This document shows, piece after piece, positions 3,909-50,054 of a stretch of 64,000 bases of DNA. A program made the translations under genes and the position numbers. Numbering within the stretch: the first letter of the stretch is position 1; each line of letters starts with the position of its first letter. The notes under the pieces are model-generated. The model was not told the origin of the DNA. It worked only from the letters and a program-made list of their open reading frames with translations, and did no database searches. The DNA is taken from assembly GCF_055900595.2 (NCBI RefSeq), contig NZ_CM148325.1. One strand, given 5' to 3'.

Positions 3909-4838
3909 ATGAAACCACTGCTGGATGTGTTGATGATCCTCGATGCCTTAGAAAAAGAAGGCAGTTTTGCGGCGGCGTCAGCCAAACTCTACAAGACGCC
4001 GTCCGCTCTGAGTTACACCGTTCACAAGCTGGAAAGCGACCTTAATATTCAATTGCTTGATCGTAGCGGTCACCGCGCTAAATTCACCCGCACCGGAAAA
4101 ATGTTATTAGAGAAAGGGCGGGAAGTTCTGCATACCGTGCGGGAACTGGAAAAGCAGGCGATCAAACTGCATGAAGGCTGGGAAAACGAGCTGGTGATTG
4201 GCGTGGACGACACGTTTCCTTTTTCTCTGCTTGCGCCACTGATTGAAGCTTTTTATCAACATCATAGCGTGACGCGCCTGAAGTTTATCAATGGCGTACT
4301 CGGTGGTTCCTGGGATGCCCTGACTCAGGGGCGAGCGGATATTATTGTTGGCGCGATGCATGAGCCACCATCTTCCAGTGAGTTTGGTTTCTCGCGGTTG
4401 GGCGATCTGGAACAAGTCTTTGCGGTAGCGCCTCATCATCCGTTAGCCCTGGAAGAAGAACCGTTAAACCGTCGTATCATTAAGCGATATCGGGCGATTG
4501 TGGTGGGGGACACTGCGCAGGCCGGCGCTTCTACGGCCTCACAACTTCTCGACGAACAAGAAGCCATTACCGTCTTCGATTTTAAAACCAAGCTAGAGCT
4601 GCAAATTAGCGGCCTCGGCTGCGGCTATTTACCCCGTTATCTGGCGCAACGTTTTCTCGATAGTGGCGCGTTAATCGAGAAGAAAGTGGTCGCCCAAACT
4701 CTCTTTGAATCCGTCTGGATTGGCTGGAACGAACAGACCGCAGGGCTTGCCAGCGGCTGGTGGCGAGATGAAATTTTAGCAAATAGTGCGATCGCCGGTG
4801 TTTATGCAAAATCTGATGACGAAAAATCAGCCATTTAA
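3909..4838 (+). CDS. yeeY: LysR-family transcriptional regulator YeeY
   Basis: Translation MKPLLDVLMILDALEKEGSFAAASAKLYKTPSALSYTVHKLE... (HTH then LysR substrate domain); ORF-track start at 3888 is an extension. Confidence 0.9.
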   Translation: MKPLLDVLMILDALEKEGSFAAASAKLYKTPSALSYTVHKLESDLNIQLLDRSGHRAKFTRTGKMLLEKGREVLHTVRELEKQAIKLHEGWENELVIGVDDTFPFSLLAPLIEAFYQHHSVTRLKFINGVLGGSWDALTQGRADIIVGAMHEPPSSSEFGFSRLGDLEQVFAVAPHHPLALEEEPLNRRIIKRYRAIVVGDTAQAGASTASQLLDEQEAITVFDFKTKLELQISGLGCGYLPRYLAQRFLDSGALIEKKVVAQTLFESVWIGWNEQTAGLASGWWRDEILANSAIAGVYAKSDDEKSAI

Positions 4839-5104: not shown

Positions 5105-6463
5105 ATGTCGCATAACGTTACTCCAAACACCTCTCGCGTGGAATTGCGTAAAACGCTTACGTTAGTTCCGGTTGTAATGATGGGTCTTGCCTATATGCAG
5201 CCGATGACGCTGTTTGATACTTTTGGTATCGTTTCAGGCCTCACGGATGGTCATGTGCCGACAGCCTATGCGTTCGCATTGATTGCGATCCTGTTTACGG
5301 CTCTGAGCTACGGGAAGCTGGTTCGCCGCTATCCTTCTGCTGGCTCTGCATATACTTACGCCCAGAAATCCATTAGCCCGACTGTCGGCTTTATGGTGGG
5401 TTGGTCTTCTCTGCTCGACTATCTGTTCGCGCCGATGATCAACATTCTGCTGGCGAAAATCTATTTTGAAGCTCTGGTGCCTTCCATCCCATCGTGGATG
5501 TTTGTGGTGGCGCTGGTGGCCTTTATGACCGCCTTTAACCTGCGTAGTCTGAAATCCGTAGCGAACTTCAACACTGTAATCGTCGTGTTGCAGGTAGTGC
5601 TGATCGCGGTGATTCTGGGCATGGTTGTTTATGGCGTATTTGAAGGTGAAGGCGCTGGTACGCTGGCGAGCACTCGTCCGTTCTGGTCTGGCGATGCGCA
5701 TGTTATCCCGATGATTACCGGGGCGACAATCCTGTGCTTCTCCTTTACCGGCTTTGACGGCATCAGCAACCTGTCGGAAGAAACCAAAGATGCAGAGCGC
5801 GTGATCCCGCGTGCGATTTTCCTGACCGCGCTGATTGGCGGCATGATCTTCATCTTTGCAACTTACTTCCTGCAGCTGTACTTCCCGGATATCTCTCGCT
5901 TTAAAGATCCGGATGCGTCACAGCCTGAAATCATGCTGTACGTGGCAGGTAAAGCATTCCAGGTTGGTGCGCTGATCTTCTCCACCATTACCGTACTGGC
6001 GTCCGGTATGGCGGCGCACGCAGGTGTTGCGCGTCTGATGTACGTAATGGGTCGTGACGGCGTGTTCCCGAAAAGCTTCTTCGGTTATGTACACCCGAAA
6101 TGGCGTACTCCGGCGATGAACATCATCCTGGTTGGCGCGATTGCCCTGCTGGCAATCAACTTCGACCTGGTAATGGCTACGGCGCTGATTAACTTTGGTG
6201 CGTTGGTGGCGTTCACCTTCGTTAACCTGTCGGTCATCTCGCAGTTCTGGATCCGTGAGAAGCGTAACAAGACGCTGAAAGATCACTTCCAGTATCTGTT
6301 CCTGCCGATGTGTGGTGCGCTGACCGTTGGTGCGCTGTGGGTTAACCTGGAAGAAAGCTCAATGGTTCTGGGTCTGATCTGGGCGGCTATCGGTCTGATT
6401 TACCTGGCTTGCGTCACCAAGAGTTTCCGTAACCCGGTTCCGCAGTACGAAGACGTAGCGTAA
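5105..6463 (+). CDS. plaP: Putrescine importer PlaP (APC-family permease)
   Basis: 452-aa multi-[39 protein letters not shown]... Confidence 0.9.
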
Positions 6464-13484: not shown

Positions 13485-13649
13485 AAGCAGGCACCTGCCG
13501 TCTGAACGGTATCGATCCGGAAGCGTATCTGCGCCATATTCTGAGCATACTGCCGGAATGGCCCTCCAACCGTGTTGACGAACTCCTGCCATGGAACGTA
13601 GTTCTCACCAATAAATAAGCGTCAATACGGTGCTCCGTTGACGCTTACT
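13485..13649 (+). mobile_element. IS66-family remnant: 3' end of tnpC plus terminal inverted repeat
   Basis: Plus frame AGTCRLNGIDPEAYLRHILSILPEWPSNRVDELLPWNVVLTNK* parallels the C-terminus of the intact IS66 TnpC at 24160-25731; ends in ...CGCTTAC, the complement of the GTAAGCG IR. Confidence 0.7.
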
Positions 13650-13846
13650 TTAATCCGTTTTCTGAGCTTAGATTTTTCTGTTCCTACCCAGACCGTGGAT
13701 TTGGAATTCATTTTTTGTCAGGTCAATGCTAATCGTTAAAACGGCCATAACGCACCTCCACTGGAAGGTTTATCAGTAATATCCTACCGTTGCTTCATGG
13801 TCGGGGCGTCCATTCCATTATTATCGGTTTTCCTTTCTGTTTATAA

Positions 13847-13878
13847 ATGAAAACGCCAGCTGTATTCAGGCTGGCGTC
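13847..13878 (-). terminator. Rho-independent terminator downstream of yeeW
   Basis: Minus strand GCCAGCCTGAATACAGCTGGC followed by GTTTTCATTT. Confidence 0.5.
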
Positions 13879-14032
13879 AGGGGAAATGAAGCCTGTTGAG
13901 TGAGATTCACCGCTTCTGGTGCAGAAGCTGCAGATGGCGCAGGGTAAGGACATCTTCTCTTGCCTGCTTAATACAGGACAACAGTGCTGTTTCTGTGGTT
14001 AATGGCACTATACCCTGCATCACTGCATTGTC

Positions 14033-14227
14033 TTACAGCAACTGGTGAGGGCTGGCATAAGTTGCCGGTGTTTCGGTAGAGTCACGGTCATCCACCACGC
14101 GGAGTGAATAACCTTTTTCAGCGGCCTTATTAATCAGTTCAGTGATATTAACACCATCAATGTCAACGACAATGTGCCCCATATCCAGCGCCTGTACGTT
14201 AACGCTGTCGGCTTCCAGTGTCATCAT
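14033..14227 (-). CDS. yeeW: CP4-44-type prophage protein YeeW
   Basis: 64-aa ORF MMTLEADSVNVQALDMGHIVVDIDGVNITELINKAAEKGYSLRVVDD...; its start overlaps the cbtA stop. Confidence 0.8.
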   Translation of the reverse strand: MMTLEADSVNVQALDMGHIVVDIDGVNITELINKAAEKGYSLRVVDDRDSTETPATYASPHQLL

Positions 14228-14597
14228 TTCGCCTCCGGATACTTACCCAGGGTAATGTTATTTACCGTTCTGTAATTGTCGCGGGTCATCAGGCCGGTCG
14301 CCCTGCGAGCCCGGAGGATATCGATGCTGTTTATTAACTGAGAGCGGGTACAGGCGCTGAATCCCGGCTGGTCGGTAGCACCAGCGCGTATTTTTCCACG
14401 AGAAAGTTCACCGCATCACACAGTGAAATGCCTGCCTCAATATGCTGCTCAATCACACGTTCATCGGCAAAAGGTGTGTCATTCAGTGTGAGGCCATAGT
14501 GCTGGTCCAGCAGTCGGGACAGCAGTATCTGCCAGATTTCAACAGGAGACGGGCGAGAACTGGTCGCCTGCCCGGGTAATACAGGTAATGTTTTCAT
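14224..14597 (-). pseudogene. cbtA: Type IV toxin CbtA (YeeV), frameshifted
   Basis: N-terminus [36 protein letters not shown]... intact to ...VEKYALV, then frame is lost near 14395; the C-terminus ...NSIDILRARRATGLMTRDNYRTVNNITLGKYPEAK reads in an adjacent frame. Confidence 0.8.
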
Positions 14598-14685
14598 ACT
14601 GAAGATTTTCCTGATATGCAGATATAAAAATGGAAAAGTGGCGTGGTGAAAACACCAGGCCGTAGCAGAAGGCTATTCTGGAGAG

Positions 14686-15054
14686 TTAATTTTTCATTTC
14701 GGGCGTCGGATAAACAGCCAGATAAACGTAACCACAACTGCTGAGGGTATCGGCTTTGCAGGTCAGCCCTTTTGCATACAGCGTGACGGTATGCTGATGG
14801 CGGGGATTCAGTTCACCGCTGGTGAGCATGAGTTCCAGTTGTTTCATCAGCAGCGGAAAGGCCTGGTCCAGGTGGTACGCATCTGCATCGCTGAACAGGC
14901 CTCTGATACCGGCGCGGTCGGCAAGGTAATGCAACCGGTTACCCTCCTGCACCAGACGTGCCCCGAAACAGGGCGTCACGGTGCAGGGCAGCCCCCACCA
15001 GGGGCGGTCGTGATTGTCGTCGGGAAGTGTTGTCCCGGGGAGTGTGTCTGACAC
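14686..15054 (-). CDS. cbeA: Antitoxin CbeA (YeeU)
   Basis: 122-aa ORF MSDTLPGTTLPDDNHDRPWWGLPCTVTPCFGARLVQEGNRLHYLADRAGI... Confidence 0.9.
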   Translation of the reverse strand: MSDTLPGTTLPDDNHDRPWWGLPCTVTPCFGARLVQEGNRLHYLADRAGIRGLFSDADAYHLDQAFPLLMKQLELMLTSGELNPRHQHTVTLYAKGLTCKADTLSSCGYVYLAVYPTPEMKN

Positions 15055-15127
15055 GATAAAATCCTTACAGAAAATCGGCTAAGAATGGTCCGGTAGTGGC
15101 GATAATTCTGCTCATCAGAATTCCCAC

Positions 15128-15349
15128 TCAGTTCAGGGTGACGCTCATCAGCCGGACATACGGACCAAAACTGTCCTTACGGCGTTCAGCAAACACGGCC
15201 AGCACACCGGGAATATCCTGCACTTCACGACCGGTATACGCTTCAGCACTGCCGTGCCAGCGGTATTTACCGGTACAGAACGGAAAAAGACGGGATGTCG
15301 GATGTTGTTGGTGAATACGCATGGCTTCACCACGGGTGATAATTTTCAT
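15128..15349 (-). CDS. yeeT: YeeT (DUF987) prophage protein
   Basis: 73-aa ORF MKIITRGEAMRIHQQHPTSRLFPFCTGKYRWHGSAEAYTGREVQDIPGVL... Confidence 0.85.
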   Translation of the reverse strand: MKIITRGEAMRIHQQHPTSRLFPFCTGKYRWHGSAEAYTGREVQDIPGVLAVFAERRKDSFGPYVRLMSVTLN

Positions 15350-15411
15350 AATGGGATACCTCTGAAGACAGAAGATAAAAGTGAAAACAGGTGTGATGTG
15401 GTTGTGAAGGG

Positions 15412-15903
15412 TTAAAGCAGACCATGTTCGGCAAAGGAGAAAACCTGGTTGCCACCGACTATCAGATGGTCCGGCACCCGGATATCCACCAGGCCCAGTG
15501 CCTGTACCAGACGTTCCGTGATAAGGCGGTCTGCCTTACTGGGTGTGACTTCACCGGAGGGGTGATTGTGTGCCAGCACCACGGCAGCGGCATTGTGGTA
15601 CAGGGCGCGTTTAATCACTTCCCGGGGATGGACTTCCGTGCGGTTGATGGTGCCGGTAAAGAGGGTTTCACCGGCAATCAGTTGATTCTGGTTATTCAGA
15701 TACAGCACCCGGAATTCTTCACGCTCCAGTCCCGCCATGTTCAGAATCAGCCATTCCCGTGCTGCACGGGTGGAGGTGAAGGCCACGCCGGGTTCATGAA
15801 GATGGCGGTCCAGGGTTTTCAGGGCCCGTTGAATGAGGCTGCGCTCGCCGGGCGTCATCTCTCCGGGCAGAAAGGAAAGTTGTTGCATTGTGCTTCTCTC
15901 CAT
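15412..15903 (-). CDS. yeeS: RadC-like JAB-domain protein YeeS
   Basis: JAMM motif HNHPSGEVTPSKADRLIT; exact start (15903 or a downstream Met) uncertain. Confidence 0.85.
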   Translation of the reverse strand: MERSTMQQLSFLPGEMTPGERSLIQRALKTLDRHLHEPGVAFTSTRAAREWLILNMAGLEREEFRVLYLNNQNQLIAGETLFTGTINRTEVHPREVIKRALYHNAAAVVLAHNHPSGEVTPSKADRLITERLVQALGLVDIRVPDHLIVGGNQVFSFAEHGLL

Positions 15904-16383
15904 TCAGTCGATGATGCGCATAATGGCGCTGCATTCCGGATGCTGCAGGGCGTAATCCCGCAACCGGTAATAATGGACCGTCATGGCATAATTCTCCGTA
16001 CGACAGGCATGATGACTGTACGTCATCAGACAGGCGGCAATACCGGCGGCTTCCGGGCTCATTTCTGCGCGGTTACCGTTCATGGCATTGAACAGTACCC
16101 ATGTTTCGTCATCATCGTCATCCGGTTCGGGTGCCATAAATGCCCCGCCGTTGTTCAGGGTGTACAGATTCCAGATACCACCGCAGTAGTCTTCGCACAG
16201 ACGGTCCATCCAGCCGAAGACACGGGGCTCCAGGGTCACCCACTGTGGAATGAGGCCAAAATGCTGCGGCCAGAAGCTGATGCGCTGTTCATCAGGGACG
16301 AGGCTGGCAACCAACTGAGGCGGATTATTCTCTGGTGTTGTAGCTGAATAAATTGTGGGGGTATTCTGAGAAACGGTTTTCAT
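15904..16383 (-). CDS. Antirestriction protein, KlcA/ArdB family (YfjX-like)
   Basis: 159-aa ORF ...NPPQLVASLVPDEQRISFWPQHFGLIPQWV...EPDDDDDETWVLFNAMNGNRAEMS... Confidence 0.85.
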   Translation of the reverse strand: MKTVSQNTPTIYSATTPENNPPQLVASLVPDEQRISFWPQHFGLIPQWVTLEPRVFGWMDRLCEDYCGGIWNLYTLNNGGAFMAPEPDDDDDETWVLFNAMNGNRAEMSPEAAGIAACLMTYSHHACRTENYAMTVHYYRLRDYALQHPECSAIMRIID

Positions 16384-16464
16384 GAGATAACTCTTTAAAT
16401 AACAAATAAATGTGTGTTTTTCAGGAACGAAAGCTGAATGATTCCCTCACTCAGGGAAACGGCA

Positions 16465-17286
16465 TCAGCGCAGGCTCTCCAGCATCGTTTCTGCCATCAC
16501 CCACAATGCGCGATTGAGCTTAATGTCGGTATCAATGCTGTGAATGGCCCGGGTATGGATACGTTTTCCTTTTGCACTGCGACCGGAAATCCCGCCTTTC
16601 AGCATATTCTCCTGGATGGTCTGATATGCGCTCCACAGGTCCTTACCGTAATCCTCCCGGCGTCGCGGCGTCAGAATGTCGGCGGTGGTGACGGGCTGAT
16701 GTTCGTCACCATAACGGTAAGTCAGTGCCGCCTGTGCCAGCGCCTGGCGTGCCGGTGGCGGCAGGACCAGAGACTGCATGGCATCACGCTTCTCCTCTAT
16801 CCGGTCAAACACGCCCACCACCTCGTAAGCCCCTTCGATAACTTTCTCCACTACATTTCCCCGGTGTGGAACACGCACTTCCCCCAGAGACTGGCCACAG
16901 ACGCACCCGTTCTGGCAGACGAACCTGAAGTAACCCGGCAGCATCTGGTAGCTGGAGGTACCGTCATGAGAGTTGAGCAGAATAATTTCAGGGACATGTT
17001 CTCCGTTTATCTCTCCGGCCCGCCGCAGACGCAGCATGTGTTTTGTGTATCCCCGGCGGCCCGGGTCGCGCACACGGGTCTGGCAGGCGAAGAACGGCTG
17101 AAAGCCTTCCCGCTGCAGATTTTCCAGGACGGTAATGGTGGGAATGTACGCATACCGTTCACTGCGGGAGGTGTGCCGGTCTTCCCCAAAAATACTGGGT
17201 ACATGGCGTATCAGTTCTTCATGTGTCAGCGGACGGTCACGGCGTATCTGGTTTGCAGCATAACCAAAACGACTTGCTAATCGCAT
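16465..17286 (-). CDS. YfjQ/YafZ-like island backbone protein (DUF932-type)
   Basis: 273-aa ORF MRLASRFGYAANQIRRDRPLTHEELIRHVPSIFGEDRHTSRSERYAYIPT...; same position relative to the antirestriction gene as yfjQ in CP4-57. Confidence 0.7.
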   Translation of the reverse strand: MRLASRFGYAANQIRRDRPLTHEELIRHVPSIFGEDRHTSRSERYAYIPTITVLENLQREGFQPFFACQTRVRDPGRRGYTKHMLRLRRAGEINGEHVPEIILLNSHDGTSSYQMLPGYFRFVCQNGCVCGQSLGEVRVPHRGNVVEKVIEGAYEVVGVFDRIEEKRDAMQSLVLPPPARQALAQAALTYRYGDEHQPVTTADILTPRRREDYGKDLWSAYQTIQENMLKGGISGRSAKGKRIHTRAIHSIDTDIKLNRALWVMAETMLESLR

Positions 17287-17506
17287 ACTTTGCTCCTTAT
17301 CGGTGGTTAAGATTTACTGGTGCAATAAATGAAAAAAGCCGCGTCTCCCGGAGAAGACGCGGCCTGACGGGTGAAATGAATAAGGTTTATTGTCTGAGAG
17401 GCCTTTCACTGGCGAGCCACGCATTAAGCGGCTTTCCGGTAACAATGGCTGGGGCTGTATTTACCTTTGATATTAATAATGTGCAGAGAAACGCATGGTT
17501 TACTCC

Positions 17507-17917
17507 TTAGATTTTAAGTTTGTCCTGGGCTACAACGACAGGTTTTCCGGATGTGTCGATGACTCCTACCGTCGGTACGCCATTTTTGATTTCGAAGAAC
17601 GGTTTGTTGCTACCTGAGCACAGTTGATTGTCCCCGTATTCAATCATTTGTGCTTTCCCGGTTTTCAGGTTAACTACCGAGACAGTGTAGTCGTAGCACC
17701 AGGCACCACCACGTTCAAGCACGAAAACATAGCTGTTATCTTTATAGTTGAACTGATTCTTTGTCTGGCAATTCATACCGTCAATTTCGGTACAGGAAAA
17801 CGCTTCTGTAGTATTAACGTATTTGATGTTATTTGGCAGTTTTACTTGTTTCGCAGTAGCGAAGACAGAGAACAGAATAGTTACAGCAACGAGTAAAGTT
17901 TTGATAAAAGTTTTCAT
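17507..17917 (-). CDS. Small secreted protein, unknown function (signal peptide, 4 Cys)
   Basis: 136-aa ORF MKTFIKTLLVAVTILFSVFATAKQ...; AT-rich relative to neighbours; plausible RBS. Confidence 0.6.
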   Translation of the reverse strand: MKTFIKTLLVAVTILFSVFATAKQVKLPNNIKYVNTTEAFSCTEIDGMNCQTKNQFNYKDNSYVFVLERGGAWCYDYTVSVVNLKTGKAQMIEYGDNQLCSGSNKPFFEIKNGVPTVGVIDTSGKPVVVAQDKLKI

Positions 17918-17932
17918 GATAGACTCCTTAAA

Positions 17933-18421
17933 TTAGTTAACCGCAGCTACGTAGTTTTTCACCAGATACGCGAATTCATGCACGCCAATTTCACCGAACC
18001 AAACCAGGTAGGCCGGGTCATCTAAACCAAAGTAACGGTAGCCAACAACTTCATGGGTTTTTGGGTTATAGAGTGTTACGATAAAGTCCCAGCCGCAGGT
18101 ATTGGCTTTGCAACCGTCGCCCTGGAACCAGACTGTACCGTTAATGTTTACTGGCGTGATACCTCCACCAGGGCCATCCATATAGCCGCCTTTACCGAAC
18201 ATGCCGCTCAGTCCGACCGGTTTTAATGCTTTGTCGATAGCGGCTTTGTAGGTAGCGTCACCTTCGTACAACTCGTACGTTGATGGACACGCTCCAGGTT
18301 GTTCAGCCCAGGCTTCCGGGTTACAACTAAGAGCTTGTTTTACGGTAGCCGCTTCTGCGTTAAAGTTAAAGCCCGTGAACAGAACCGCCAGAAATAACAT
18401 AAGGGTATGTAAACGTTTCAT
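17933..18421 (-). CDS. Secreted protein with an Ivy-like C-K-x3-C loop (possible periplasmic lysozyme-inhibitor-like protein)
   Basis: From internal Met: MKRLHTLMLFLAVLFTGFNFNAEA... with GDGCKANTCGWDFIV; ORF-track start at 18724 is an implausible 100-aa extension. Confidence 0.55.
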   Translation of the reverse strand: MKRLHTLMLFLAVLFTGFNFNAEAATVKQALSCNPEAWAEQPGACPSTYELYEGDATYKAAIDKALKPVGLSGMFGKGGYMDGPGGGITPVNINGTVWFQGDGCKANTCGWDFIVTLYNPKTHEVVGYRYFGLDDPAYLVWFGEIGVHEFAYLVKNYVAAVN

Positions 18422-18718
18422 TGTAAATATTCTTCCGTTGTAAATGGCGCTGGAAAATTTCTCATCAGTGAAACCTTCCGGAAGTTTCCCCCCCTTGTAT
18501 GATGTATATCGCCAGTATTTTATTTCATCCCGGCTGTAATTTTTATATTCCCCGGCACGTGCAATAACGCTGACCAGAGATATAAGGCTCATTAATAACT
18601 TTACAGGTAATTTCATAATTAAATTTCCAGTGAGTGAATTGACAGGTGAGGGGTAAAACTTTCTCTCAGGTAATATATATCTGAAAATATTTTCAATAAC
18701 ACCAGACAGGAAAAACAC

Positions 18719-18748
18719 CACCACAGGCGGTGGCGTTTCTTTGGGGCG
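18719..18748 (-). terminator. Rho-independent terminator downstream of the patatin gene
   Basis: Minus strand CGCCACCGCCTGTGGTGGTG followed by TTTTTCC, directly after the stop at 18752. Confidence 0.6.
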
Positions 18749-18751
18749 TCT

Positions 18752-19822
18752 TTATTTAATCCGGGCCATCGCGTTTCTCAGTGCCAAATCTGCCTCTTCC
18801 GTTATATCCAGGCTTTTCTGCAATACCGCCTCTGACCGGGTCAGTGCCTGACGTGCTGCCAGCGGTTTCCGGATATGCTCCATCGCCAGCATCGTGTCTT
18901 CATAGCCCTGCTGACGCCAGGCGTCGGTATGTGCCGATGTAAAACTGAGCAGACCGCCGCTGTTGCCACCATCACCTGCATATTTCAGCCTTTTCCGGGG
19001 ACGGATCTCAAGGATTGTGGTGTCCGGAAAAGCCTGGCGATCCCATAAAGAACCGTCACTCAGATGCGTCACAATCACCATATTGCATCCGGCATCGACC
19101 AGAGGTGTCACAGGGGTATTTCCCTGCATATTTCGCCATCCTCCCATACCACCATCACCGAACATTGTCCCCTGAACCTCACGGGGACGGAACAGCAGGG
19201 GCAGCGCGGCTGACGCAAGCAGAGCCTCTTTCTGCTGTCCGCGGGGCAGGCTCTGGATATGCTGAAAAACGGCGTTTTTCGTGGTTCCGACACCCAGTTC
19301 AGCACGAATGCAGTCAATAATATCCTGCATGCCCCCTTCTGTGGGGTACAGCGACACATACAGCGGTAGCCCGTCTGCCAGAGCATCAGTATCAAGATAA
19401 TGATCCATCAGCGCTGTCAGGGGTTCATCTGACAACAACGGCTGAGCCATCAGATTGTCAAACCCGTTGATTGTCGATATATGGCGAAGAAGCGTCGTAA
19501 GCAGTGCTCCTGCACGTCCGGGGATCTGGCAGAGGTTCATTGCCTGGAACAATTTTTTCAGCAATGAAAAGTAAACCAATCTGTTTACCGACAGCACCTG
19601 ATTATTCCCCAGATGATCCCAGAGCGCCTCCAGGCGTACGGCAGCTTCTGACAGATCGGGAGAGGCCACGATAATGGCACCATTGAATGCGCCAATGCTG
19701 GCCCCTGAAACCATGCTGATCTGTGTACCACACTCTGCCAGTGCCTTAACCACTCCCGCCTGATAAGCGCCCACCGCCCCGCCACCGGACAGCACCAGCC
19801 CCGTTTTCATTTCTGTACTCAT
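18752..19822 (-). CDS. Patatin-like phospholipase
   Basis: Oxyanion-hole LSGGGAVGAYQAG, nucleophile elbow GASIG (GxSxG) and catalytic DGG (FGDGGMGG); start overlaps upstream stop (ATGA). Confidence 0.85.
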   Translation of the reverse strand: MSTEMKTGLVLSGGGAVGAYQAGVVKALAECGTQISMVSGASIGAFNGAIIVASPDLSEAAVRLEALWDHLGNNQVLSVNRLVYFSLLKKLFQAMNLCQIPGRAGALLTTLLRHISTINGFDNLMAQPLLSDEPLTALMDHYLDTDALADGLPLYVSLYPTEGGMQDIIDCIRAELGVGTTKNAVFQHIQSLPRGQQKEALLASAALPLLFRPREVQGTMFGDGGMGGWRNMQGNTPVTPLVDAGCNMVIVTHLSDGSLWDRQAFPDTTILEIRPRKRLKYAGDGGNSGGLLSFTSAHTDAWRQQGYEDTMLAMEHIRKPLAARQALTRSEAVLQKSLDITEEADLALRNAMARIK

Positions 19823-20724
19823 GCAGCCCCCTTCTGAAATATTTCATCGACCATACTTTCAGAGAGGCGTTCTGCAGAGCAGAGGCGAGGCATGCGAACC
19901 GGTAAGTGTTCTGCAGCCTGCGTGGTTGACCAGATCACCGGATGCTGCTCTTCACTGCACCAGTCTCCCAGCCAGTTAATCGCGTCATGCCACTCGTTAT
20001 CTGCCTGCTCCCGGCCCTGACCACCAAGCCAGTCCAGAGTGTTCAGACGCACGGTTGCACTACCGCCACTCTCCTGTGCCATCTGCGTTAATGCTTTATG
20101 TCTGAGAATATCCAGTAGCTGGTTAACCTGGCCTGTTTCGCTCTGACGTATCACATCACCAAACGCGCCCCAGCGAAGCTCTTCAAGTGCCACATAACAA
20201 CGTCCGGCAGGGGAAAATGACGCATATCGCCCGGCGCTCCACCATGAGAATATCTGCTCAAGATGTAACTGCGCCCGCTGAACCTGGTCAACACGGTGGA
20301 GTTTTTCTTCAAGATGATTCAGTTTATGGTGAACCTGATCGGCCAGGGTGAGTAACTGCTCCCGCGTATCTGCGGAATAATGCGCCAGCCTGGCTGTATC
20401 ACTGACCAGTGAACTGACCCTGTCGTTTACCCGGGTAATCGCGTAGTTTGTGGTGGCAAGTGACGTTGTCATCTCCGTCAGCCAGCGCAGGGACGCCTCA
20501 ACGCCCTGTGCAAGCGACGCATTGATGGCATTCTGCCGTGCAGCGCCTTCGCCGGTCAGCCCCTCTTTTAAACGCCGGAAGAACGTGCGCTCTCCGGCCG
20601 TGCGGATATGCTCCTGTGCAACATCGATTCCGTTTGCGAAATCAACCACAAATTTTTCAGGAAGACAGGTGAGTACCTGACATACCCGGTTATCAGCAAT
20701 TTGTTGAATAAATGGTGAAGTCAC
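19819..20724 (-). CDS. Hypothetical 301-aa protein, translationally coupled between the dynamin-like and patatin genes
   Basis: ORF MTSPFIQQIADNRVCQVLTCLPEKF...; no motif recognised; 4-nt ATGA overlaps at both ends. Confidence 0.7.
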   Translation of the reverse strand: MTSPFIQQIADNRVCQVLTCLPEKFVVDFANGIDVAQEHIRTAGERTFFRRLKEGLTGEGAARQNAINASLAQGVEASLRWLTEMTTSLATTNYAITRVNDRVSSLVSDTARLAHYSADTREQLLTLADQVHHKLNHLEEKLHRVDQVQRAQLHLEQIFSWWSAGRYASFSPAGRCYVALEELRWGAFGDVIRQSETGQVNQLLDILRHKALTQMAQESGGSATVRLNTLDWLGGQGREQADNEWHDAINWLGDWCSEEQHPVIWSTTQAAEHLPVRMPRLCSAERLSESMVDEIFQKGAA

Positions 20725-23117
20725 AGCATTGTCTCCAGCTCTTCCCTCAGCGCCTTACTGTCAGTAATGAGCTCAGGAACCCTTTCATTTAATGCCTGAA
20801 GTCGCCCGGTAAGTCGTTCCTGCGCCTGCTGATCGCGTTTATGATCTTCAGAGCTCTGAATCAGCGTGTTACGCAGTTGTTCAACTTTCTCCCTGAATGC
20901 GCAGAAAAAGGCATCGATTTCCTGGCGGACGGGCTGGTTAATATCCTGCTCAATGGATGCCTGCAGCTCCCCGAAATATGCCCGGGTCAGTGACATAACT
21001 TCCTCTCTGACCTTGTTGATATTGATCACGCTGCGACTCACATCCTCGTCATAGTTTTCCCAGCCCAGGTCACTGGTGCCAAACCATCGACAAACGGTTC
21101 CCCATACGCCACTCTGCCGACGGCGACGGGTGACGGTCTCCGTTCTTTCCTCCATAAGCGCACTCAGATTTATTTTTACCGCGAGCCGGGTCTGTAACTG
21201 GCTGACTGCCGGAAAACTGATTTTTACGGTAAAGCCCTCATCCTCCAGGCGGGCATTGATGCGACCGGCAATGTTTTCTGTGGCGTACAGGGCCGTGCCA
21301 CGAAAACCTGTTTCAATCCCGCTGACGATTTTCTCCAGCTCAGGCCGGAACTGTGCTTCAGCCTCACGGTGCAGGCTGGTCACGGTCGATTCGATTTGCG
21401 TCATCAGTTCAAGGGCTTCCCTGCGATCACTGAATTTTATTTCGGGGCTGTCCGGGGCAAAATCTCGTTTCCTGTAATCCTCCCGGCCCTGGTTGTTGAT
21501 ACCGGACCATTGAGAAATTTTCCCCCATAATCCGGACTGAGACCTTCGTTGTTCTGCGTCTTCTTCCTCCAGCATTTGCTGTTCTTTGCGTTTACCGCTT
21601 CTGAAATAGTCATTCAGCTCCTCTTCCAGTGAGGTGCAGACCCCCGTCAGTAATTCCCGGGTTTTAGTATCGATCTCCTCCATGGCCATTCTGACATCAG
21701 TGGTCATCTGCTCCTGACAGTCCGCGATTTCCCGGATATCCGCAAGCAGGCTGGTGATATGCGACTGCAGTGACTGAATGCTTTGCTGTAGCCCCTGATG
21801 GCGTAACAACAGGTATTCACTGATATTTTCTGCATTCTGCATCAGTTTTGCGGCGGCAGAGTCAACCGCCAGTGCCGCAGCTCTGGAATGTGAGCTCTGT
21901 ATGACTTCCGTTATCAGTTGATCGATAAGTGAGCCTTCCCACAGGTCTGTCGCCCCTTCAGTTGCCAGTTCACTGTCTTTACAGACGTATTCTTTTTTCA
22001 TGCAACCGAAGGCACCTCTGATAAAATCATCGACCCAGGCTTCATCAACAGGAAGGGTTCCGTTTTTCCGTAACTCATGAAGCGCACGGTTAGCCAGGTA
22101 TGCCTGGCGTGAGGATCCGGGATAAACGCGGGAGGCGGGCAGCACATTGCTGTTCAGCATTGCCGGAACTTTCTGGCGTACGGCATCTGCCCCATCGCCA
22201 TTGCGGTCTTTCTCATCAAATTTATTGACCAGTACAAACAGGCGGCCGGCTGATACGTCAGCAATGGCATTAAGCTCTTTACGGACGTCTTCATCCGCTT
22301 TTGAGTTCATCTGTGTGTAATCCATCACAGCCAGAACCGCAGAGGCTTTCTGCAGTTGATCCCGCATCATCACTTCCATCTGCGGTTGTCCGGCCTCATT
22401 AGGGCCGGGGGTATCCAGCAGTGTGAGTGTTCCCTGGCATGCATCCATCCCCACCAGATGGCTGAATTCCACGTCGATCACCGGCAGTTTCTGCACTTCT
22501 GCGTATTCATCAAAAGGAAATTCAGTCCCCATTGCCGCAGCAAGACGAACCAGATCGTTTAACGATGCCAGTCCGGTAAAGATTTCCTCCTCCCCGTGGT
22601 ATTCATTTTTGAGCCAGCCATCATCCGTCAGAATATCCAGCAGTTCGCGGGTATCCCCGGTTTGCTGCAGGGTCTGTGCGACCTGCTGTCCTGCCGGGGT
22701 GGCGAGTTTTTCCTGCAGTGTGATTAATAAATTGCGGACAGGCTGAATATGTTCCAGATGGAGAACCGGCTCAGTTTTTCCGGGAACGTGGCGGATGAGC
22801 GTCGGTACAGAGGTCATGGGGCGGTTACGGTTAGGCAGAATTTCCTGCCCCACAATGGCGTTGATGGTGGTTGATTTGCCTGCTTTCATCGTGCCGACAA
22901 CAGCCAGCACCATCTCCCTGCGGGCGGTTTTGATTTGTTCGCCCTCCAGCTCCTCAATTCTTTTCAGTGCTTTCTGTTTATCAAAAAGCAGTCTGTTTTC
23001 GTTCTTACTGTCAGATAACACATCTGGCTCCTCAACCATTTGCCGGAGCAGATTAATGTTCAGTTGCAAAAGTCGGTCGGCTTCATCACAAAGCAGGGCG
23101 ATGTTCTTTTCGTGCAT
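20721..23117 (-). CDS. Dynamin-like large GTPase (bacterial dynamin-like protein, 798 aa)
   Basis: G1 GTMKAGKST, G3 DTPG, G4 NKFD, followed by a long helical, charge-rich stalk region. Confidence 0.85.
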   Translation of the reverse strand: MHEKNIALLCDEADRLLQLNINLLRQMVEEPDVLSDSKNENRLLFDKQKALKRIEELEGEQIKTARREMVLAVVGTMKAGKSTTINAIVGQEILPNRNRPMTSVPTLIRHVPGKTEPVLHLEHIQPVRNLLITLQEKLATPAGQQVAQTLQQTGDTRELLDILTDDGWLKNEYHGEEEIFTGLASLNDLVRLAAAMGTEFPFDEYAEVQKLPVIDVEFSHLVGMDACQGTLTLLDTPGPNEAGQPQMEVMMRDQLQKASAVLAVMDYTQMNSKADEDVRKELNAIADVSAGRLFVLVNKFDEKDRNGDGADAVRQKVPAMLNSNVLPASRVYPGSSRQAYLANRALHELRKNGTLPVDEAWVDDFIRGAFGCMKKEYVCKDSELATEGATDLWEGSLIDQLITEVIQSSHSRAAALAVDSAAAKLMQNAENISEYLLLRHQGLQQSIQSLQSHITSLLADIREIADCQEQMTTDVRMAMEEIDTKTRELLTGVCTSLEEELNDYFRSGKRKEQQMLEEEDAEQRRSQSGLWGKISQWSGINNQGREDYRKRDFAPDSPEIKFSDRREALELMTQIESTVTSLHREAEAQFRPELEKIVSGIETGFRGTALYATENIAGRINARLEDEGFTVKISFPAVSQLQTRLAVKINLSALMEERTETVTRRRRQSGVWGTVCRWFGTSDLGWENYDEDVSRSVININKVREEVMSLTRAYFGELQASIEQDINQPVRQEIDAFFCAFREKVEQLRNTLIQSSEDHKRDQQAQERLTGRLQALNERVPELITDSKALREELETML

Positions 23118-23169
23118 TATTTAACCTTCCTAAGACGCATTTTCATGACAACCACGGAGGAGGTCATTT

Positions 23170-23250
23170 ACTACAAACGATCGTTTATAACGATCGATAT
23201 GATAGTAACGATCGATGTATTCTATTAACTTGAGAAACACAACGCAAGGG
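23170..23250 (-). promoter_or_regulatory. Putative promoter with three clustered GATC (Dam) sites; candidate phase-variation switch
   Basis: Minus strand TTGCGT-17 bp-TAGAAT, then CGATCG boxes at plus 23179, 23192 and 23210 within imperfect AACGATCG(T/A)T repeats, about 60-100 nt upstream of the dynamin start. Confidence 0.45.
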
Positions 23251-24159
23251 GACAACCCGGGTATGGCTGCGTTTGCATAGTGTTTTCATGGAGTTAAAAA
23301 TCTGTAACAACAGCCTGGTACATCACCACCGGGTTCAGAAGAAAATCCAGTTCCATACCGCGCGGGCAACAGAGACCACCTAGTCACGGACGGCGCGCAG
23401 AACCGTGCGTGCAACAGAGGCAATGCAGACGCTCTCCGCCGTGTCAAATATCCGGTCCACCGCACCGGTAAACTGTTCACGGGCCTGAGACCGGACAGAC
23501 TCCGTGCGCAGCTCGTCCTGCAGGCGGGTCATCAGGGGACTGGCGGCATGGTCGGGAAGTGCTGTCATGAGCGCACTGACCAGCGTATCCAGTTCCCAGC
23601 CGGTGCGGGCCGATACGGCAACAACCCGATGTACGGGCCGGAACAGACGGAATACCGCCTCCGTTTTTTCGCGAATGTTCTGTGCCTGTGCGGGAGAAGG
23701 CTGAATACCGGCCATATCCCATTCATGGCAGGGCTCCGTTTTATCGGCCTGCATCACCACAAACAGTACCCGCTGATGTCCCCGGTGCAGGATGTGTCGC
23801 CAGAAATACTCATCCACAGACAGGGCACGGTCATCGGCTTTAATCAGCCACAGTACCAGGTCCAGTTCGAGCAGAATGTCACGGTACAGGGCTTCATACT
23901 CTGCATCCCTGTCCCGGCTCTCGCCCACCCCGGGCAGGTCAGTGATAACCATGCTGTGACCATGGCCATTCAGACGGAAGCGCTGCACTTCCCGGGGGCC
24001 GGCGTGAACATCACTGACCGGGGTGACCTCCCCCTGAAACAGCGCATTACAGAGTGAGGATTTACCGGCCCCGCTTTTACCCATAATGCCAGGCACGGGT
24101 TCGTGACTGGTGAGTTTGCGCAGATGTTCGTAAGCGACTCGTCAGAACCGTATTGATAT

Positions 24160-25731
24160 TTACTGAGAGCTCAGATCAACTTTCCAGGGCAACAGATCGC
24201 GTACCCGGTTTGCCGGCCAGTCCTGGATATGTTCAATGACGTAACGCAGCCACTTTTCTGGCTCCACATTGTTCAGACGGCATGTGCCGATCAGCGAGTA
24301 CAACACCGCCGCATGTTCACCACCGCTGTCGGAACCCGCGAACATCCAGTTTTTCCGGCCTACGGCCACTCCCCGTAAGGCGTTCTCTGCGATGTTGTTG
24401 TCGATTTCCACCCAGCCATTACTGCAGTACACGTTCAGTGCATCCCACTGTTTCAGCAGGTATGCGAACGCTTTTGCCGTATCTGAGTGACGCGACAGTG
24501 TTTTCATCTGTTGCTGTATCCAGTCATACAGTGACTGCATCAGTGGCGCGGCTCTGGCTTTTCTTGCCGCCAGACGCTGTTCTGCTGAACAGCCCCGGAC
24601 CTCTGCCTCGATGGCATACAGTTCACCGATACGCTGCAGGGCTTCCGTGGTGATGTAGGTGGGCGCTCTTGCATGCACATCGTGGATTTTTCTCCGGGCA
24701 TGAGCCATACACGCGGCTTCCGTTATTCTGCCGGATTCGTATAACGCCCGGTAACCACCGTAAGCATCGGCCTGAAGCACACCGCTGTAACCGGCCAGGT
24801 GATTTTGTGGATGGATACCTTTCCGGTCCGGACTGTACGCGAACCAGACCGCCGGGGGCATCTGTGAACCGGCGTTACGGTCATCACGGACGTAGACCCA
24901 CAGCCGGGCTGTCCGGGTTTTACCGCTGCCCGGCTCCTGGACCGGGACGGGGATATCATCAGCATGGACTTTACCGGGCATCAGCACATACTGGCGCAGG
25001 ACGTCATACAGCGGCTCCAGCAGTTCAGCAACAGCACCTGTCCAGCGCCCCAGTGTGGCACGGCTCAGCTCCACTCCCTGACGACGGTATATTTCTGACT
25101 GGCGGTATAACGGCAGATGGTCTGCATATTTCCCGGTGACAACATGGGCCAGAAGCCCCGCTCCGGCATAACTGCGTGCAATGGGTTTTGAAGGTACTGG
25201 TGCCTGCACGATATGGTCGCACCGGCAACAGGCCTGTTTCGGACGTTGTGTTTCGATAACCTTAAAGGCGCTGCTGATAAGCTCCAGTTGCTCTGACACA
25301 TCACATCCCAGAGAACTGAGTTCACCACCACAGGCAGGACAGCATTCCTCTTCCGGCCGGATAACCCGGGTTTCACGGGGAAGTGAGGCCGGTAACGGTT
25401 TACGGGCTGAAGACTGGCGCAGGGCGGATGGCAGTACCGGGTCATATTGCTCACCCAGCGTTTCCGCCATTTCTTCCTGAAGTGCGCTGATTCGCTCCTG
25501 TGCTTCCTGTATCTGCCGTTCGGTTTTTGCACGAAGTTTTTCTGAGCTTTTACCGAACTGCATACGTTGCAGTTTCGCAACCAGCGCCTTCAGCCGGTTG
25601 ATTTCGGAAGCATAAGCCGCCACCCGCTGTGAGAGCAGGCGGTTGTATTCAGCCATCTGGCGGATGGTGTCCTGTTGCGTCTGCAACAGTGCCCGCAGGC
25701 GGGCGTTCTCATGAGCAAGTGAGGTGTCCAT
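24160..25731 (-). CDS. tnpC: IS66-family transposase TnpC (Orf3)
   Basis: 523-aa ORF with N-terminal coiled coil, zinc-ribbon CPACGG and C-terminal ...[27 protein letters not shown]. Confidence 0.9.
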
Positions 25732-25750
25732 ATCCTCACTTTACAACGGG

Positions 25751-26098
25751 TTATATGCGGATTCCAGCGCGTTCCGTTCGTTTCGGGTGCTTCCAGTTGA
25801 TACCTTCAAGAAGCATGGATAACTGAGCCGGAGTAAGGTGCACCTTGCCGTCACGGGTGACTGGCCAGACGAAGCGGCCCCGCTCCAGGCGTTTGGTGAA
25901 GAGGCACAGTCCGTCACTGTCAGCCCACAACACTTTTATCTGGTCACCCCGGCGTCCGCGGAAGATGAACAGGTGTCCGGAGAACGGGTCATCCTTCAGG
26001 ACGTTCTGAACTTTTGATGCCAGGCCGTTAAAGCCATTTCGCATATCGGTGATACCTGCAACCAGCCAGATACGCGAACCTGCAGGGAGAGATATCAT
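25751..26098 (-). CDS. tnpB: IS66 Orf2 (TnpB)
   Basis: 115-aa ORF MISLPAGSRIWLVAGITDMRNGFNGLASKVQNVL... Confidence 0.9.
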   Translation of the reverse strand: MISLPAGSRIWLVAGITDMRNGFNGLASKVQNVLKDDPFSGHLFIFRGRRGDQIKVLWADSDGLCLFTKRLERGRFVWPVTRDGKVHLTPAQLSMLLEGINWKHPKRTERAGIRI

Positions 26099-26775
26099 CA
26101 GTGGCTGCTCCCTTTTATTTCGCGGATAAGTGTCTGTAATAACGCCGGCGTCAGTTTACCTTTAAGCCTGAGAGTTCCGGCCGGCAGAACCAGCTCACAA
26201 CACAGACTGTCGGACGGTGTATTTATCCGCTCTGGTTCCTGTGCGGGGGCCGGGATTTTATTATCCGGCTCCGGCGTTAACGTCACGGGAAGCAGTGCCG
26301 GCATATTTTTTCCGGAAGGCAGCAGGCCACCTTTCCGGTATTGATGGCGCCAGTTGAAGAGCAGGTTATCGTTGATTCCGTTTTCCCGGGCGATCTGCGC
26401 CACACAGGCTCCGGGCTGCAGTGACTGCTCCACTAAGGCGATTTTAAACTCATAAGGGAAGTTGGGCCGCCGGGGACGTTTTTTTACCACGGGGGCTTCG
26501 GATATAACGGTGCTTTCAGGACGTACGACTGGTACCGTGGAAAATTGTCCGTAAAGGCAGGCATCAAGTTCCTGCTCCGACATGCCTGCGGGCAAAGGCC
26601 ACGAAAGGCCAGCTCTCCGAAAGCGCACGAACATACTACAAACTGTTGATTTTGGTACACCCAGGCGACGCCCGGCCACAACCCGGGGTAAATGTTCTTC
26701 AAAGTGAAGACGTAAAGCTTCAGTGATCCAGGTCCGGTGTTTCATACGATAGTGTCCATTAAAAATGATGGACAT
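26098..26775 (-). CDS. tnpA: IS66 Orf1 (TnpA, HTH protein)
   Basis: C-terminal half matches IS66 Orf1 (FKIALVEQSLQPGACVAQIARENGINDNLLFNWRHQYRKG...); start codon uncertain. Confidence 0.8.
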   Translation of the reverse strand: MSIIFNGHYRMKHRTWITEALRLHFEEHLPRVVAGRRLGVPKSTVCSMFVRFRRAGLSWPLPAGMSEQELDACLYGQFSTVPVVRPESTVISEAPVVKKRPRRPNFPYEFKIALVEQSLQPGACVAQIARENGINDNLLFNWRHQYRKGGLLPSGKNMPALLPVTLTPEPDNKIPAPAQEPERINTPSDSLCCELVLPAGTLRLKGKLTPALLQTLIREIKGSSH

Positions 26776-29680: not shown

Positions 29681-31638
<1,958 letters not shown>

Positions 31639-45822: not shown

Positions 45823-45898
45823 TGGCTCCTCTGACTGGACTCGAACCAGTGACATACGGATTAACAGTCCGCCGTTCTACCGACTGAACTACAGAGGA
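45823..45898 (-). tRNA. asnV: tRNA-Asn (GUU)
   Basis: 76-nt minus-strand TCCTCTGTAGTTCAGTCGGTAGAACGGCGGACTGTTAATCCGTATGTCACTGGTTCGAGTCCAGTCAGAGGAGCCA; locus name from position between ldtA and nac. Confidence 0.95.
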
Positions 45899-45916
45899 AT
45901 CGTGTGAACGGGGCGC

Positions 45917-45945
45917 ATATTAATGGCAGTGCATGGTGATGTCAA
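45917..45945 (-). promoter_or_regulatory. asnV sigma70 promoter
   Basis: Minus strand TTGACA-17 bp-TAATAT then GC-rich discriminator upstream of the tRNA. Confidence 0.7.
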
Positions 45946-46152
45946 AGGGTGAAATGCATTTTTTTGTTTGTTTGCTGTCAATTTCAACAAAGTGATGAGA
46001 TTTCAATCTTATTGGTAATGAACCATCGTGGTGCATACCCTCCTTTTATAGGGCAGGGGAACGCGACTGCTGGTGAAAAGAGCCAATGACGAATCTATCA
46101 TAATCTCTTATTTGACAGTTGGTTAGCTTGTACATCAACGCCAAAATAAAAC

Positions 46153-46168
46153 TGGCAAGCATCTTGCA
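46153..46168 (+). promoter_or_regulatory. nac sigma54 (-24/-12) promoter
   Basis: TGGCAAGCATCTTGCA with canonical GG-N10-GC spacing about 55 bp upstream of nac. Confidence 0.75.
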
Positions 46169-46223
46169 ATCTGGTTGTAAGTAATGGCGGCACTTGGGCC
46201 GATTCTCAAAAACCGGAGGCAAC

Positions 46224-47141: not shown

Positions 47142-47242
47142 GCGTTATATCGGGATGGAATAAGATGCGGGTTTTTATTATTTGTTATGCCGGGCGTTAG
47201 ACTTTAACAATAACGGGATATCTGAACTGCCCGGAGTTTACC

Positions 47243-48193: not shown

Positions 48194-48198
48194 CAAAA

Positions 48199-48222
48199 AG
48201 CCCGCTATAAAAGCGGGCTTTT
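48199..48222 (+). terminator. Rho-independent terminator after cbl
   Basis: AAGCCCGCT-ATAAA-AGCGGGCTTTTC. Confidence 0.8.
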
Positions 48223-48230
48223 CAGAAATT

Positions 48231-48306
48231 TGGCTCCTCTGACTGGACTCGAACCAGTGACATACGGATTAACAGTCCGCCGTTCTACCGACTGAACTAC
48301 AGAGGA
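48231..48306 (-). tRNA. asnU: tRNA-Asn (GUU)
   Basis: Identical 76-nt tRNA-Asn sequence on the minus strand; locus name from position between cbl and yeeO. Confidence 0.95.
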
Positions 48307-48322
48307 ATCGCTGTTGAGGCAC

Positions 48323-48350
48323 ATCTTAACGGCGAAAAATCTTTTGTCAA
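48323..48350 (-). promoter_or_regulatory. asnU sigma70 promoter
   Basis: Minus strand TTGACA-16 bp-TAAGAT upstream of the tRNA. Confidence 0.65.
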
Positions 48351-48466
48351 ACCCGATTTTTAATTTTCCCAACTGTTTGCCGTTTCTATCAACAGTTTGT
48401 TGCATTTGCAGACAATTTGATGGCGAAAATCTTTGCAGCTTTGCTGATTCTCCCTCATTATTTGAA

Positions 48467-49954: not shown

Positions 49955-50007
49955 ACGACAAAATGCAGATTATTTCAGCAAACGATTTCAAATTTAAAAA
50001 ACAGGCT

Positions 50008-50036
50008 TTGACATTGTGGGTGGGCATCGCTAATAT
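50008..50036 (+). promoter_or_regulatory. asnW sigma70 promoter
   Basis: TTGACA-17 bp-TAATAT then TCGCCTCG discriminator, 19 bp upstream of the tRNA. Confidence 0.75.
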
Positions 50037-50054
50037 TCGCCTCGTTCTCACGAT

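Follow-up and report, generated by a model that had tools for sequence, protein, structure and literature searches.

The DNA analysed here is a stretch of 64,000 nucleotides from contig NZ_CM148325.1 (the window). This work concerns the intergenic region at 23118-23379, which lies between a yeeP-like GTPase gene and a five-gene operon headed by a gene for a dynamin-family GTPase. The region carries a candidate relative of the Dam/OxyR phase-variation switch of the adhesin gene agn43 (flu; cah in O157:H7), placed in front of a different cargo. The features of the region are the following:

23242..23247, minus strand: -35 hexamer TTGCGT, 17 nt from the -10 hexamer
23219..23228, minus strand: -10 block TTAATAGAAT, with the hexamer TAGAAT at 23224..23219
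23210..23213, no strand assigned: GATC-I, aligned with GATC-I of agn43
23192..23195, no strand assigned: GATC-II, which sits in the invariant ATCGATCG
23179..23182, no strand assigned: GATC-III, with a II-III spacing of 13 that is the same in all alleles
23212, minus strand: transcription start predicted by homology, at the A of GATC-I
23118..23212, minus strand: predicted 5' leader of 95 nt, with the Shine-Dalgarno sequence AGGAAGG at 23131..23125
23180..23216, minus-strand reading: predicted OxyR tetramer site ATCGATCGTTACTATCATATCGATCGTTATAAACGAT, a consensus match
23380..24096, minus strand: yeeP-like GTPase gene, which lies upstream of the switch as a conserved neighbour

The sequence reads as the first-pass annotation had described it. 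The three CGATCG boxes begin at 23179, 23192 and 23210, with start-to-start spacings of 13 and 18 bp, and the imperfect direct repeats are present, each GATC of the triple being part of a CGATCG within the plus-strand sequence AACGATCG(T/A)T. Both hexamers of the proposed minus-strand promoter can also be located, with TTGCGT (23247..23242) separated by a 17-nt spacer from TAGAAT (23224..23219). A generic promoter scan does not list this promoter because it scores 8 of the 12 consensus positions, under the threshold of 9; the K-12 flu promoter, TTGTCC-17-TAGAAT, likewise reaches 8/12. The scan's own pick, TTAATA-18-TATCAT, has been set aside and the homology-based promoter is preferred.

The clustering of the GATC sites has not been relied on as evidence, because a triple within 31 bp is expected in ~45% of random placements in 64 kb (P ~0.45 under uniform placement; the second-tightest triple takes up 54 bp). 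Three CGATCG this close together are rare (15 CGATCG sites in the window, P ~5e-4), and the surrounding island is GATC-poor, with 54 GATC sites observed against 87.5 expected in 13.5-36 kb. The decisive evidence is the homology to agn43, not the GATC counts.

The order in K-12 CP4-44 is yeeP, a 327-bp spacer in which the IsrC RNA is annotated, flu, and then yeeR-yeeS-yeeT-cbeA-cbtA, which places flu in the slot behind yeeP, as had been claimed. When the minus strand of the window is aligned with the region upstream of K-12 flu, the yeeP 3' ends are nearly identical, ~100 nt are diverged, and the alignment then resumes through the -10 block TAATAGAATA and all three GATC boxes. The -35 positions also align, the hexamer being TTGCGT in the cah-type and dynamin-type alleles and TTGTCC in K-12 flu. 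The region upstream of O157:H7 cah is nearer to the window than that of K-12 flu (~72% over 231 nt, with the TTGCGT -35 shared), and the same is true of other Ag43/Cah alleles, which have the TTGCGT -35 alike. Since these sequences can be aligned, they point to a common ancestry of the window region and the flu/cah regions, and descent from one switch, beyond a shared architecture, appears practically certain. The agn43-like three-GATC architecture of the first-pass annotation is thus true homology by alignment with both K-12 flu and O157 cah. The region also follows a CP4-44-family yeeP-like gene, and it has three close GATCs that overlap the predicted OxyR region at the promoter, as described for agn43-type switches (PMC13337833; PMC4872104).

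The window shares with K-12 agn43 and O157:H7 cah the yeeP-like neighbour, TAATAGAAT, the order of the GATCs and the distance of 13 from GATC-II to GATC-III. The annotation of the K-12 isrC/flu leader RNA begins at the A of the homologous GATC-I (L001 5318), 222 nt upstream of the flu ATG, and 5' RACE placed the agn43 start of strain EC958 228 nt upstream of its ATG (PMC4807369). From these two observations, transcription in the window is predicted to start at 23212 and to give a 95-nt leader, in contrast to the ~222 nt of K-12; nearly all of the IsrC-annotated leader is absent in the window. The first ~55 nt of the predicted leader are homologous to the cah leader, while the last ~40 nt are specific to dynamin-type alleles. 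In the predicted leader RNA (23118-23212), a CCUCC ~40 nt upstream pairs with the strong AGGAAGG ribosome-binding site, and this pairing could be a translational control element or chance.

The OxyR motif used in this analysis is ATAGnTnnnAnCTAT-N7-ATAGnTnnnAnCTAT (37 bp with 20 specified positions), which reportedly comes from Toledano et al. 1994. On the minus strand, 23216..23180 (ATCGATCGTTACTATCATATCGATCGTTATAAACGAT) matches this consensus at 16/20 positions. It is the sole match of at least 14/20 on either strand of the window, and any site of at least 16/20 occurs in 3% of block shuffles. The predicted site extends from ~-4 to +33 relative to the predicted start, and its distance from the -10 is the same as in K-12. 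All three GATCs lie in or beside the OxyR recognition elements. The scores of the known switches are 14/20 for K-12 agn43 and 13/20 for O157 cah, compared with 15-16/20 for the dynamin-type alleles and 17/20 for the agn43 allele of strain 673. In agn43 and cah the OxyR-consensus site likewise lies over the three GATCs, at or downstream of the start, and the agn43 site has been described in the repressor position (PMC13337833; PMC4872104).

The same bases could be read in another way. An 8-bp palindrome made up of GATC-II and GATC-III, with TTTGTAGT after it, is flagged by a terminator scan, and the leader fold contains this hairpin. The CGATCG repeats might then act through structure or through another reader of GATC, that is, as a leader RNA hairpin or attenuator or as a SeqA-binding cluster. 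This is highly improbable: the leader folds only slightly better than shuffled sequences (z = -1.9), an Rfam search of the predicted leader gave no meaningful match, and experiments have established the homologous K-12 sequence as a target of OxyR and Dam (PMC13337833; PMC4872104). A dyad such as this palindrome is expected in an OxyR site, and the terminator call has been read as this dyad in view of the poor T-run and the weak z-score of the fold.

Based on the homology with agn43, we propose that 23118-23379 carries an orthologue of the agn43 (flu/cah) Dam-OxyR switch that is wired to the five-gene operon and works as a phase-variation switch. We assign this reading a probability of roughly 0.75. 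RNA polymerase would start at ~23212 from the TTGCGT-17-TAGAAT promoter, and reduced OxyR would bind the 37-bp site at 23180-23216, from just before the start to ~+33, covering the three GATCs. In the OFF state, bound OxyR would repress transcription and shield the GATCs from Dam, while in the ON state Dam would methylate the GATCs after replication, leading to the exclusion of OxyR and transcription of the operon. Both states would be inherited and would switch at low frequency, giving a clonal population with ON and OFF cells, and expression of this widespread operon is probably limited to a heritable fraction of the cells. The start, the binding of OxyR, the sensitivity to methylation and the bistability are all carried over from agn43 by homology.

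The cargo that this switch would control, a dynamin/RdcB/patatin operon in place of the autotransporter adhesin of agn43 and cah, consists of five genes and ends at a terminator-like hairpin:

20721..23117, minus strand: gene 1, dynamin-family GTPase, a 798-codon open reading frame (RefSeq name; NCBIfam NF007368)
19819..20724, minus strand: gene 2, RdcB-family protein (RefSeq name for the identical locus)
18752..19822, minus strand: gene 3, patatin-like phospholipase (RefSeq; weak NCBIfam RssA and PADLOC phospholipase matches, N-terminal motif)
17933..18616, minus strand: gene 4, 227-aa protein with an N-terminal signal-peptide-like segment
17507..17917, minus strand: gene 5, 136-aa protein with an N-terminal signal-peptide-like segment
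17336..17365, minus strand: intrinsic terminator-like hairpin, strong, with a 13-bp stem, 8 G-C pairs and a T-run

Gene 1 matches NF007368 with E=1e-166 and 556 bits, below the equivalog cut-off of 1146. By its sequence it is a full-length paralogue of CrfC/YjdA/RdcA and not the same protein. The start of gene 2 and the stop of gene 1 overlap; the RefSeq name of gene 2 is 'diguanylate cyclase regulator RdcB family protein'. Genes 1 and 2 are thus full-length paralogues of RdcA and RdcB (YjdA/CrfC and YjcZ) of K-12 (PMC6510439), with ~30% identity to these core proteins according to PMC12922286. The cargo differs from the K-12 pair in that it lies on an island and comes together with a patatin-like phospholipase and two exported proteins. 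The hairpin at 17336-17365 is likely the end of the five-gene unit, and its position agrees with the five-gene co-regulated cluster reported in E. coli MP1 (PMC12922286).

An assignment of the operon to a known defence system was tried with PADLOC and rejected, the only matches being marginal ones, to the phospholipase model and to LeoBC (E = 8.8e-5 for the latter). The Eleos (LeoA/LeoBC) anti-phage systems also have dynamin-family GTPases on mobile islands near defence genes, as is the case here. However, their gene content differs from that of the cargo, which includes RdcB-like and patatin genes, and in the PADLOC search no stretch passed as LeoBC alone and no LeoA match was found. The functions suggested in the MP1 study are phage defence or a link to cyclic di-GMP (c-di-GMP) signalling (PMC12922286).

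Expression data for a related operon are available from MP1. In that study, the MP1 derivatives MP13 (a Kapi1 lysogen) and KP7 (without the prophage) were compared with two colonies each, and of all clusters the five genes SID94_19700-19720 showed the strongest up-regulation in MP13 relative to KP7, in LB and in simulated intestinal fluid (PMC12922286). The authors state that the regulation of such dynamins had not yet been described (PMC12922286). In the MP1 genome (NZ_CP139039.1), located through its prophage, the cluster consists of the dynamin, RdcB and patatin genes and two hypothetical genes, directly downstream of a frameshifted GTPase gene. The intergenic region has TTGCGT-17-TAGAAT and three GATCs with 18/13 spacing, and the co-regulated cluster begins exactly at the gene behind the switch. 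A large difference between the separately derived sister strains MP13 and KP7 that is independent of the medium is what a heritable ON/OFF state would give, which is circumstantial support for such a state. Such a pattern is the colony-state artefact that has been documented for Ag43 studies (PMC3764049). No publication linking the dynamin operon to the agn43 switch was found in searches pairing dynamin with agn43, OxyR, Dam/GATC, methylome or phase variation.

The conservation of the switch has been followed in 14 alleles with three GATCs, of which six are dynamin-type (the window, O157 strain 2-6-2, 13C1065T, CFT073, MP1 and E. albertii), six are Ag43/Cah-type and two are from Citrobacter. 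The sequence TAATAGAAT of the -10 block (23227..23219) is identical in 14/14 alleles and across the three cargo classes, and the preceding base, 23228, is T in 13 of them and A in K-12 flu. The three GATCs, their II-III spacing of 13 and the ATC that precedes GATC-II do not vary either. In every dynamin-type allele GATC-I and GATC-II are 18 apart, as they are in the agn43 of strain 673, a true agn43 allele with the 18/13 spacing; the remaining seven alleles, K-12 and cah among them, have 19. Beyond this core, the flanks diverge past the point of alignment.

Within the core, none of the 12 GATC columns varies, as opposed to 18 of the 29 other columns (Fisher P = 2.7e-4). Four of the 14 allele sequences came from a GATC-requiring pattern, and the test was repeated on the ten alleles found by BLAST only, with a similar outcome (0/12 GATC columns varying vs 17/29 others, P = 3.8e-4). 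E. albertii has the same switch and operon, with 93% protein identity in the dynamin, and its substitutions fall between the GATCs and none inside them. A metagenome scan was anchored on the flanks only (TTAATAGAAT ... CCTCCTCCGTGGTTGTCATGA, gap 30-60), without a GATC requirement; it returned 42 contigs with 15 haplotypes, and all three GATCs are kept in 41/42.

Some natural alleles have rearranged or altered sites. E. coli NCTC9699 (complete genome; L005 6148-6190) has a dynamin-type allele with two GATCs, in which the 18-bp repeat unit made up of GATC-I and the spacer has been deleted, probably by recombination between ATCGATCGTTA repeats. This allele would make a useful natural test of the number of GATCs that the switch needs. 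In the metagenome contig L043 (QZLM01002248.1, ~6053-6138), GATC-III reads TATC, the only GATC loss among the 42, which is either a locked variant or an assembly error. In E. coli 13C1065T (L009 ~4026-4100), the sequence after GATC-III, GATATGATAGTAA, is the reverse complement of the I-II spacer; there is a perfect 18-nt inverted repeat around TTATAAA, and an extra ATAG element has been added. The rearranged stretch resembles the product of a template switch, or of conversion, between the palindromic CGATCG sites.

Several points weigh against a working switch. Within the dynamin-type alleles taken by themselves, the depletion of variation in the GATCs is only a trend and not significant (P = 0.06-0.15, shallow sample), and two-GATC variants occur naturally in NCTC9699 and in contig L043. 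The expression difference in MP1 could truly be caused by the prophage. The OxyR half-site is printed slightly differently in PMC2909390, where switching is also said to require an intermediate OxyR affinity. The I-II spacing of the window is 1 bp under that of K-12 and its consensus match is closer (16/20 vs 14/20), and together these could raise the affinity for OxyR and leave the switch biased or locked OFF.

Given this stronger consensus match, the main rival explanation is that OxyR binds and represses without useful heritable switching, either at a near-consensus site locked OFF, which would make this a silenced island operon, or by graded control. Dynamin-type sites score 15-16/20 against 13-14/20 for K-12 flu and O157 cah, and phase variation needs an appropriate affinity and a sufficient effect of methylation (PMC2909390). 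On the other hand, the agn43 allele of strain 673 scores 17/20 at the 18/13 spacing, showing that such sites are present in the adhesin family. The GATCs are conserved although a plain repressor site needs none, while neighbouring bases of the site vary. In addition, the promoter is not always OFF, since the MP1 cluster is strongly expressed in one strain lineage. We therefore consider repression without switching unlikely and retain the phase-variation switch as the preferred reading.

The distribution of the dynamin gene is tied to that of the switch. The 95-bp core at >=80% coverage, which marks the switch-dynamin junction, is found in 1984/5426 complete E. coli genomes (~37%), with carriers that include CFT073, JJ1886 (sequence type ST131), ATCC 25922, O145, O103 and some O157 strains, and the dynamin gene (first 600 nt) is found in 2455/5426. 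A second architecture, yeeP-switch-cah-111 bp-dynamin-RdcB, is present in 635 complete E. coli genomes, as counted by the cah-dynamin junction. Because 1984 + 635 genomes have one of the junctions and 2455 have the dynamin gene, the two architectures together cover essentially all dynamin copies, and nearly every copy lies behind the switch. The 111-bp spacer between cah and the dynamin gene (O157:H7 SS52, L003 9288-9397) has no predicted promoter or terminator. The arrangement hints at joint expression of Cah and the dynamin module from a single phase-variable promoter in enterohaemorrhagic E. coli (EHEC).

Control of downstream cargo by the agn43 promoter has a precedent, since yeeR and irmA are co-transcribed with agn43 and repressed by OxyR in the uropathogenic E. 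coli strains CFT073 and EC958 (PMC4807369). The cah-111 bp-dynamin arrangement of O157 looks analogous to this agn43-yeeR-irmA operon, whereas the window has no adhesin gene between the switch and the downstream genes. The homology between the window and the O157 cah-dynamin arrangement sets in precisely at the ATG of the dynamin gene, and the ~40 nt in front of that ATG in the window have no counterpart in the other arrangement; an origin of the window allele by simple deletion of cah is not supported by this junction. Because the dynamin operon lies directly behind cah and the same switch in 635 genomes, with no predicted terminator, it seems to have held the slot under control of the switch for a long time, with the window allele as the version that lacks cah.

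A third type of cargo is found in Citrobacter braakii and C. amalonaticus, in which a yeeP-like gene (59% protein identity) is followed by the switch with 19/13 spacing. The cargo (L012 3977-5015; L014) encodes two small signal-peptide proteins of 154 and 157 aa, followed by DUF932, antirestriction and RadC genes. The two small proteins are unrelated to Ag43 or dynamin. They have no relatives in a PDB sequence search, and so none in IrmA, which has a solved structure (PMC4807369), and blastp shows no relation to genes 4 and 5 of the window. As judged by these comparisons, the switch serves at least three cargo types, namely Ag43/Cah, the dynamin operon and the exported proteins of Citrobacter. 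The suggestion of the first-pass annotation that the switch was kept while the cargo changed is borne out by the same yeeP and switch module standing before all three. It has to be refined in one respect: the switch was kept, while the dynamin operon also sits behind switch-cah in the 635 genomes. A cah-type switch is also found, together with an E. coli-type yeeP 3' end (95% protein identity), on a 1.56-kb contig (L013, JAIJJM010000733.1) from a metagenome-assembled genome (MAG) labelled Collinsella sp. This contig is almost certainly Escherichia DNA mis-binned into an actinobacterial MAG.

These comparisons also bear on the possibility that the element is an inert leftover, in which a rearrangement removed or bypassed the Ag43 gene, the GATCs persist through youth, and the operon is driven by read-through or by a prophage-linked factor. 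A rearrangement did occur, given that the leader bears no relation to that of cah over its last ~40 nt. The dynamin-type alleles are close relatives of one another, with a GATC depletion that falls short of significance among them, and the MP1 study ascribes the altered expression to the Kapi1 prophage (PMC12922286). Nevertheless, the core has been kept in E. albertii and, with a third cargo, in two Citrobacter species, while the flanks have fully diverged. Read-through is unlikely to be the main driver, as the GTPase gene is a pseudogene (truncated, IS-flanked or frameshifted) in many carriers, including the window, CFT073 and MP1, and the co-regulated cluster of MP1 starts exactly behind the switch. 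An inert leftover is quite improbable on this evidence, and a functional switch remains the preferred interpretation.

The switch can also be compared with other Dam-dependent systems. The Salmonella gtr and opvAB systems use OxyR and Dam too, with GATCs in the OxyR half-sites and methylation that blocks OxyR (PMC2909390). However, the four GATCs of gtr are arranged as two pairs that lie upstream of the promoter, and its OxyR sites are alternatives of which some activate and some repress (PMC2909390), whereas the window has three GATCs downstream of the -10 and a single predicted tetramer-length site in what would be the repressor position, as in agn43. No sequence homology of the window switch to gtr or opvAB was found, and it does not belong to that group. 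Switches of the pap type, which depend on Lrp and Dam, have two GATC boxes ~102 bp apart in Lrp sites and a PapI-like co-regulator (PMC2909390). The window switch is not of this type either: its intergenic region has only the cluster with 13/18-bp spacing, the next GATCs are >600 bp away, and no papI/papB-like gene is adjacent to it.

The island around the switch shows several further features. The yeeP-like gene of the window lacks its N-terminal part beside an insertion sequence (IS) element of the IS66 family (region 23380-26775), with the transposase at 24160-25731 and tnpB/tnpA-like open reading frames upstream. The gene is closed early by a TAG (23382..23380) that stands in place of the ACG of K-12 and O157, and it is also frameshifted or truncated in CFT073, MP1, O157 2-6-2 and 13C1065T. 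A His operon leader and three tRNA-Asn genes bracket the island, and a copy of IS100 (istA/istB) lies inside it (2465-2588, 45823-50130 and 29771-31572 for these features together). The M160133 locus, identical to the window over a 301-bp query, is flanked by yeeA, tmaR and sbmC like K-12 CP4-44. Judging from the His leader, the tRNA-Asn genes and the yeeA/tmaR/sbmC flanks, the element is at the K-12 CP4-44 position.

The distribution of GATC in the island is uneven. At 13518-19003, the window has 5.49 kb without any GATC (GC 50.6%, ~21 expected, P ~5e-10), a stretch that spans the backbone (cbtA/cbeA/yeeT/yeeS, antirestriction, DUF932), genes 4-5 and the patatin gene's 3' end. In M160133 this backbone is likewise GATC-free, and it has 3 sites vs 19.5 expected in MP1, while yeeR-yeeW of K-12 has 13 vs 15.5. 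The K-12 flu coding sequence (L001 5540-8659, 3.1 kb), directly downstream of the three regulatory GATCs, has zero GATC vs ~11 expected. The dynamin, RdcB and patatin genes of the window have a normal GATC density.

The Ag43 Dam/OxyR switch is a textbook example of epigenetic inheritance in bacteria and has been described as a property of one adhesin family. The mechanism is already known; the interest lies in the cargo, its prevalence and the pattern of a reusable slot. The comparison of the three cargo types suggests that islands carry a reusable bistable expression slot. A broader proposal, which we hold to be evenly balanced between right and wrong, is that the yeeP-adjacent three-GATC/OxyR element is a portable controller of the CP4-44-family cargo slot and that any cargo placed there becomes bistable. 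In ~45% of E. coli strains, a heritable minority of cells would then express a dynamin/phospholipase membrane module, either for phage defence or for RdcAB-like c-di-GMP/biofilm signalling co-ordinated with Ag43 aggregation, and the up-regulation in MP1 would be a phase difference between lineages.

If the switch works as proposed, it would explain why the operon appears in bulk RNA-seq as a large, medium-independent "regulated" cluster, and this would be a warning for such experiments. Mutants of oxyR or dam, or point mutants of the GATCs, would lock the operon ON or OFF and so provide a handle on an uncharacterised operon. Dam-dependent phase-variable traits would then extend beyond surface structures, in more than one third of E. 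coli, the carriers concerned including CFT073, ST131, ATCC 25922 and EHEC lineages.

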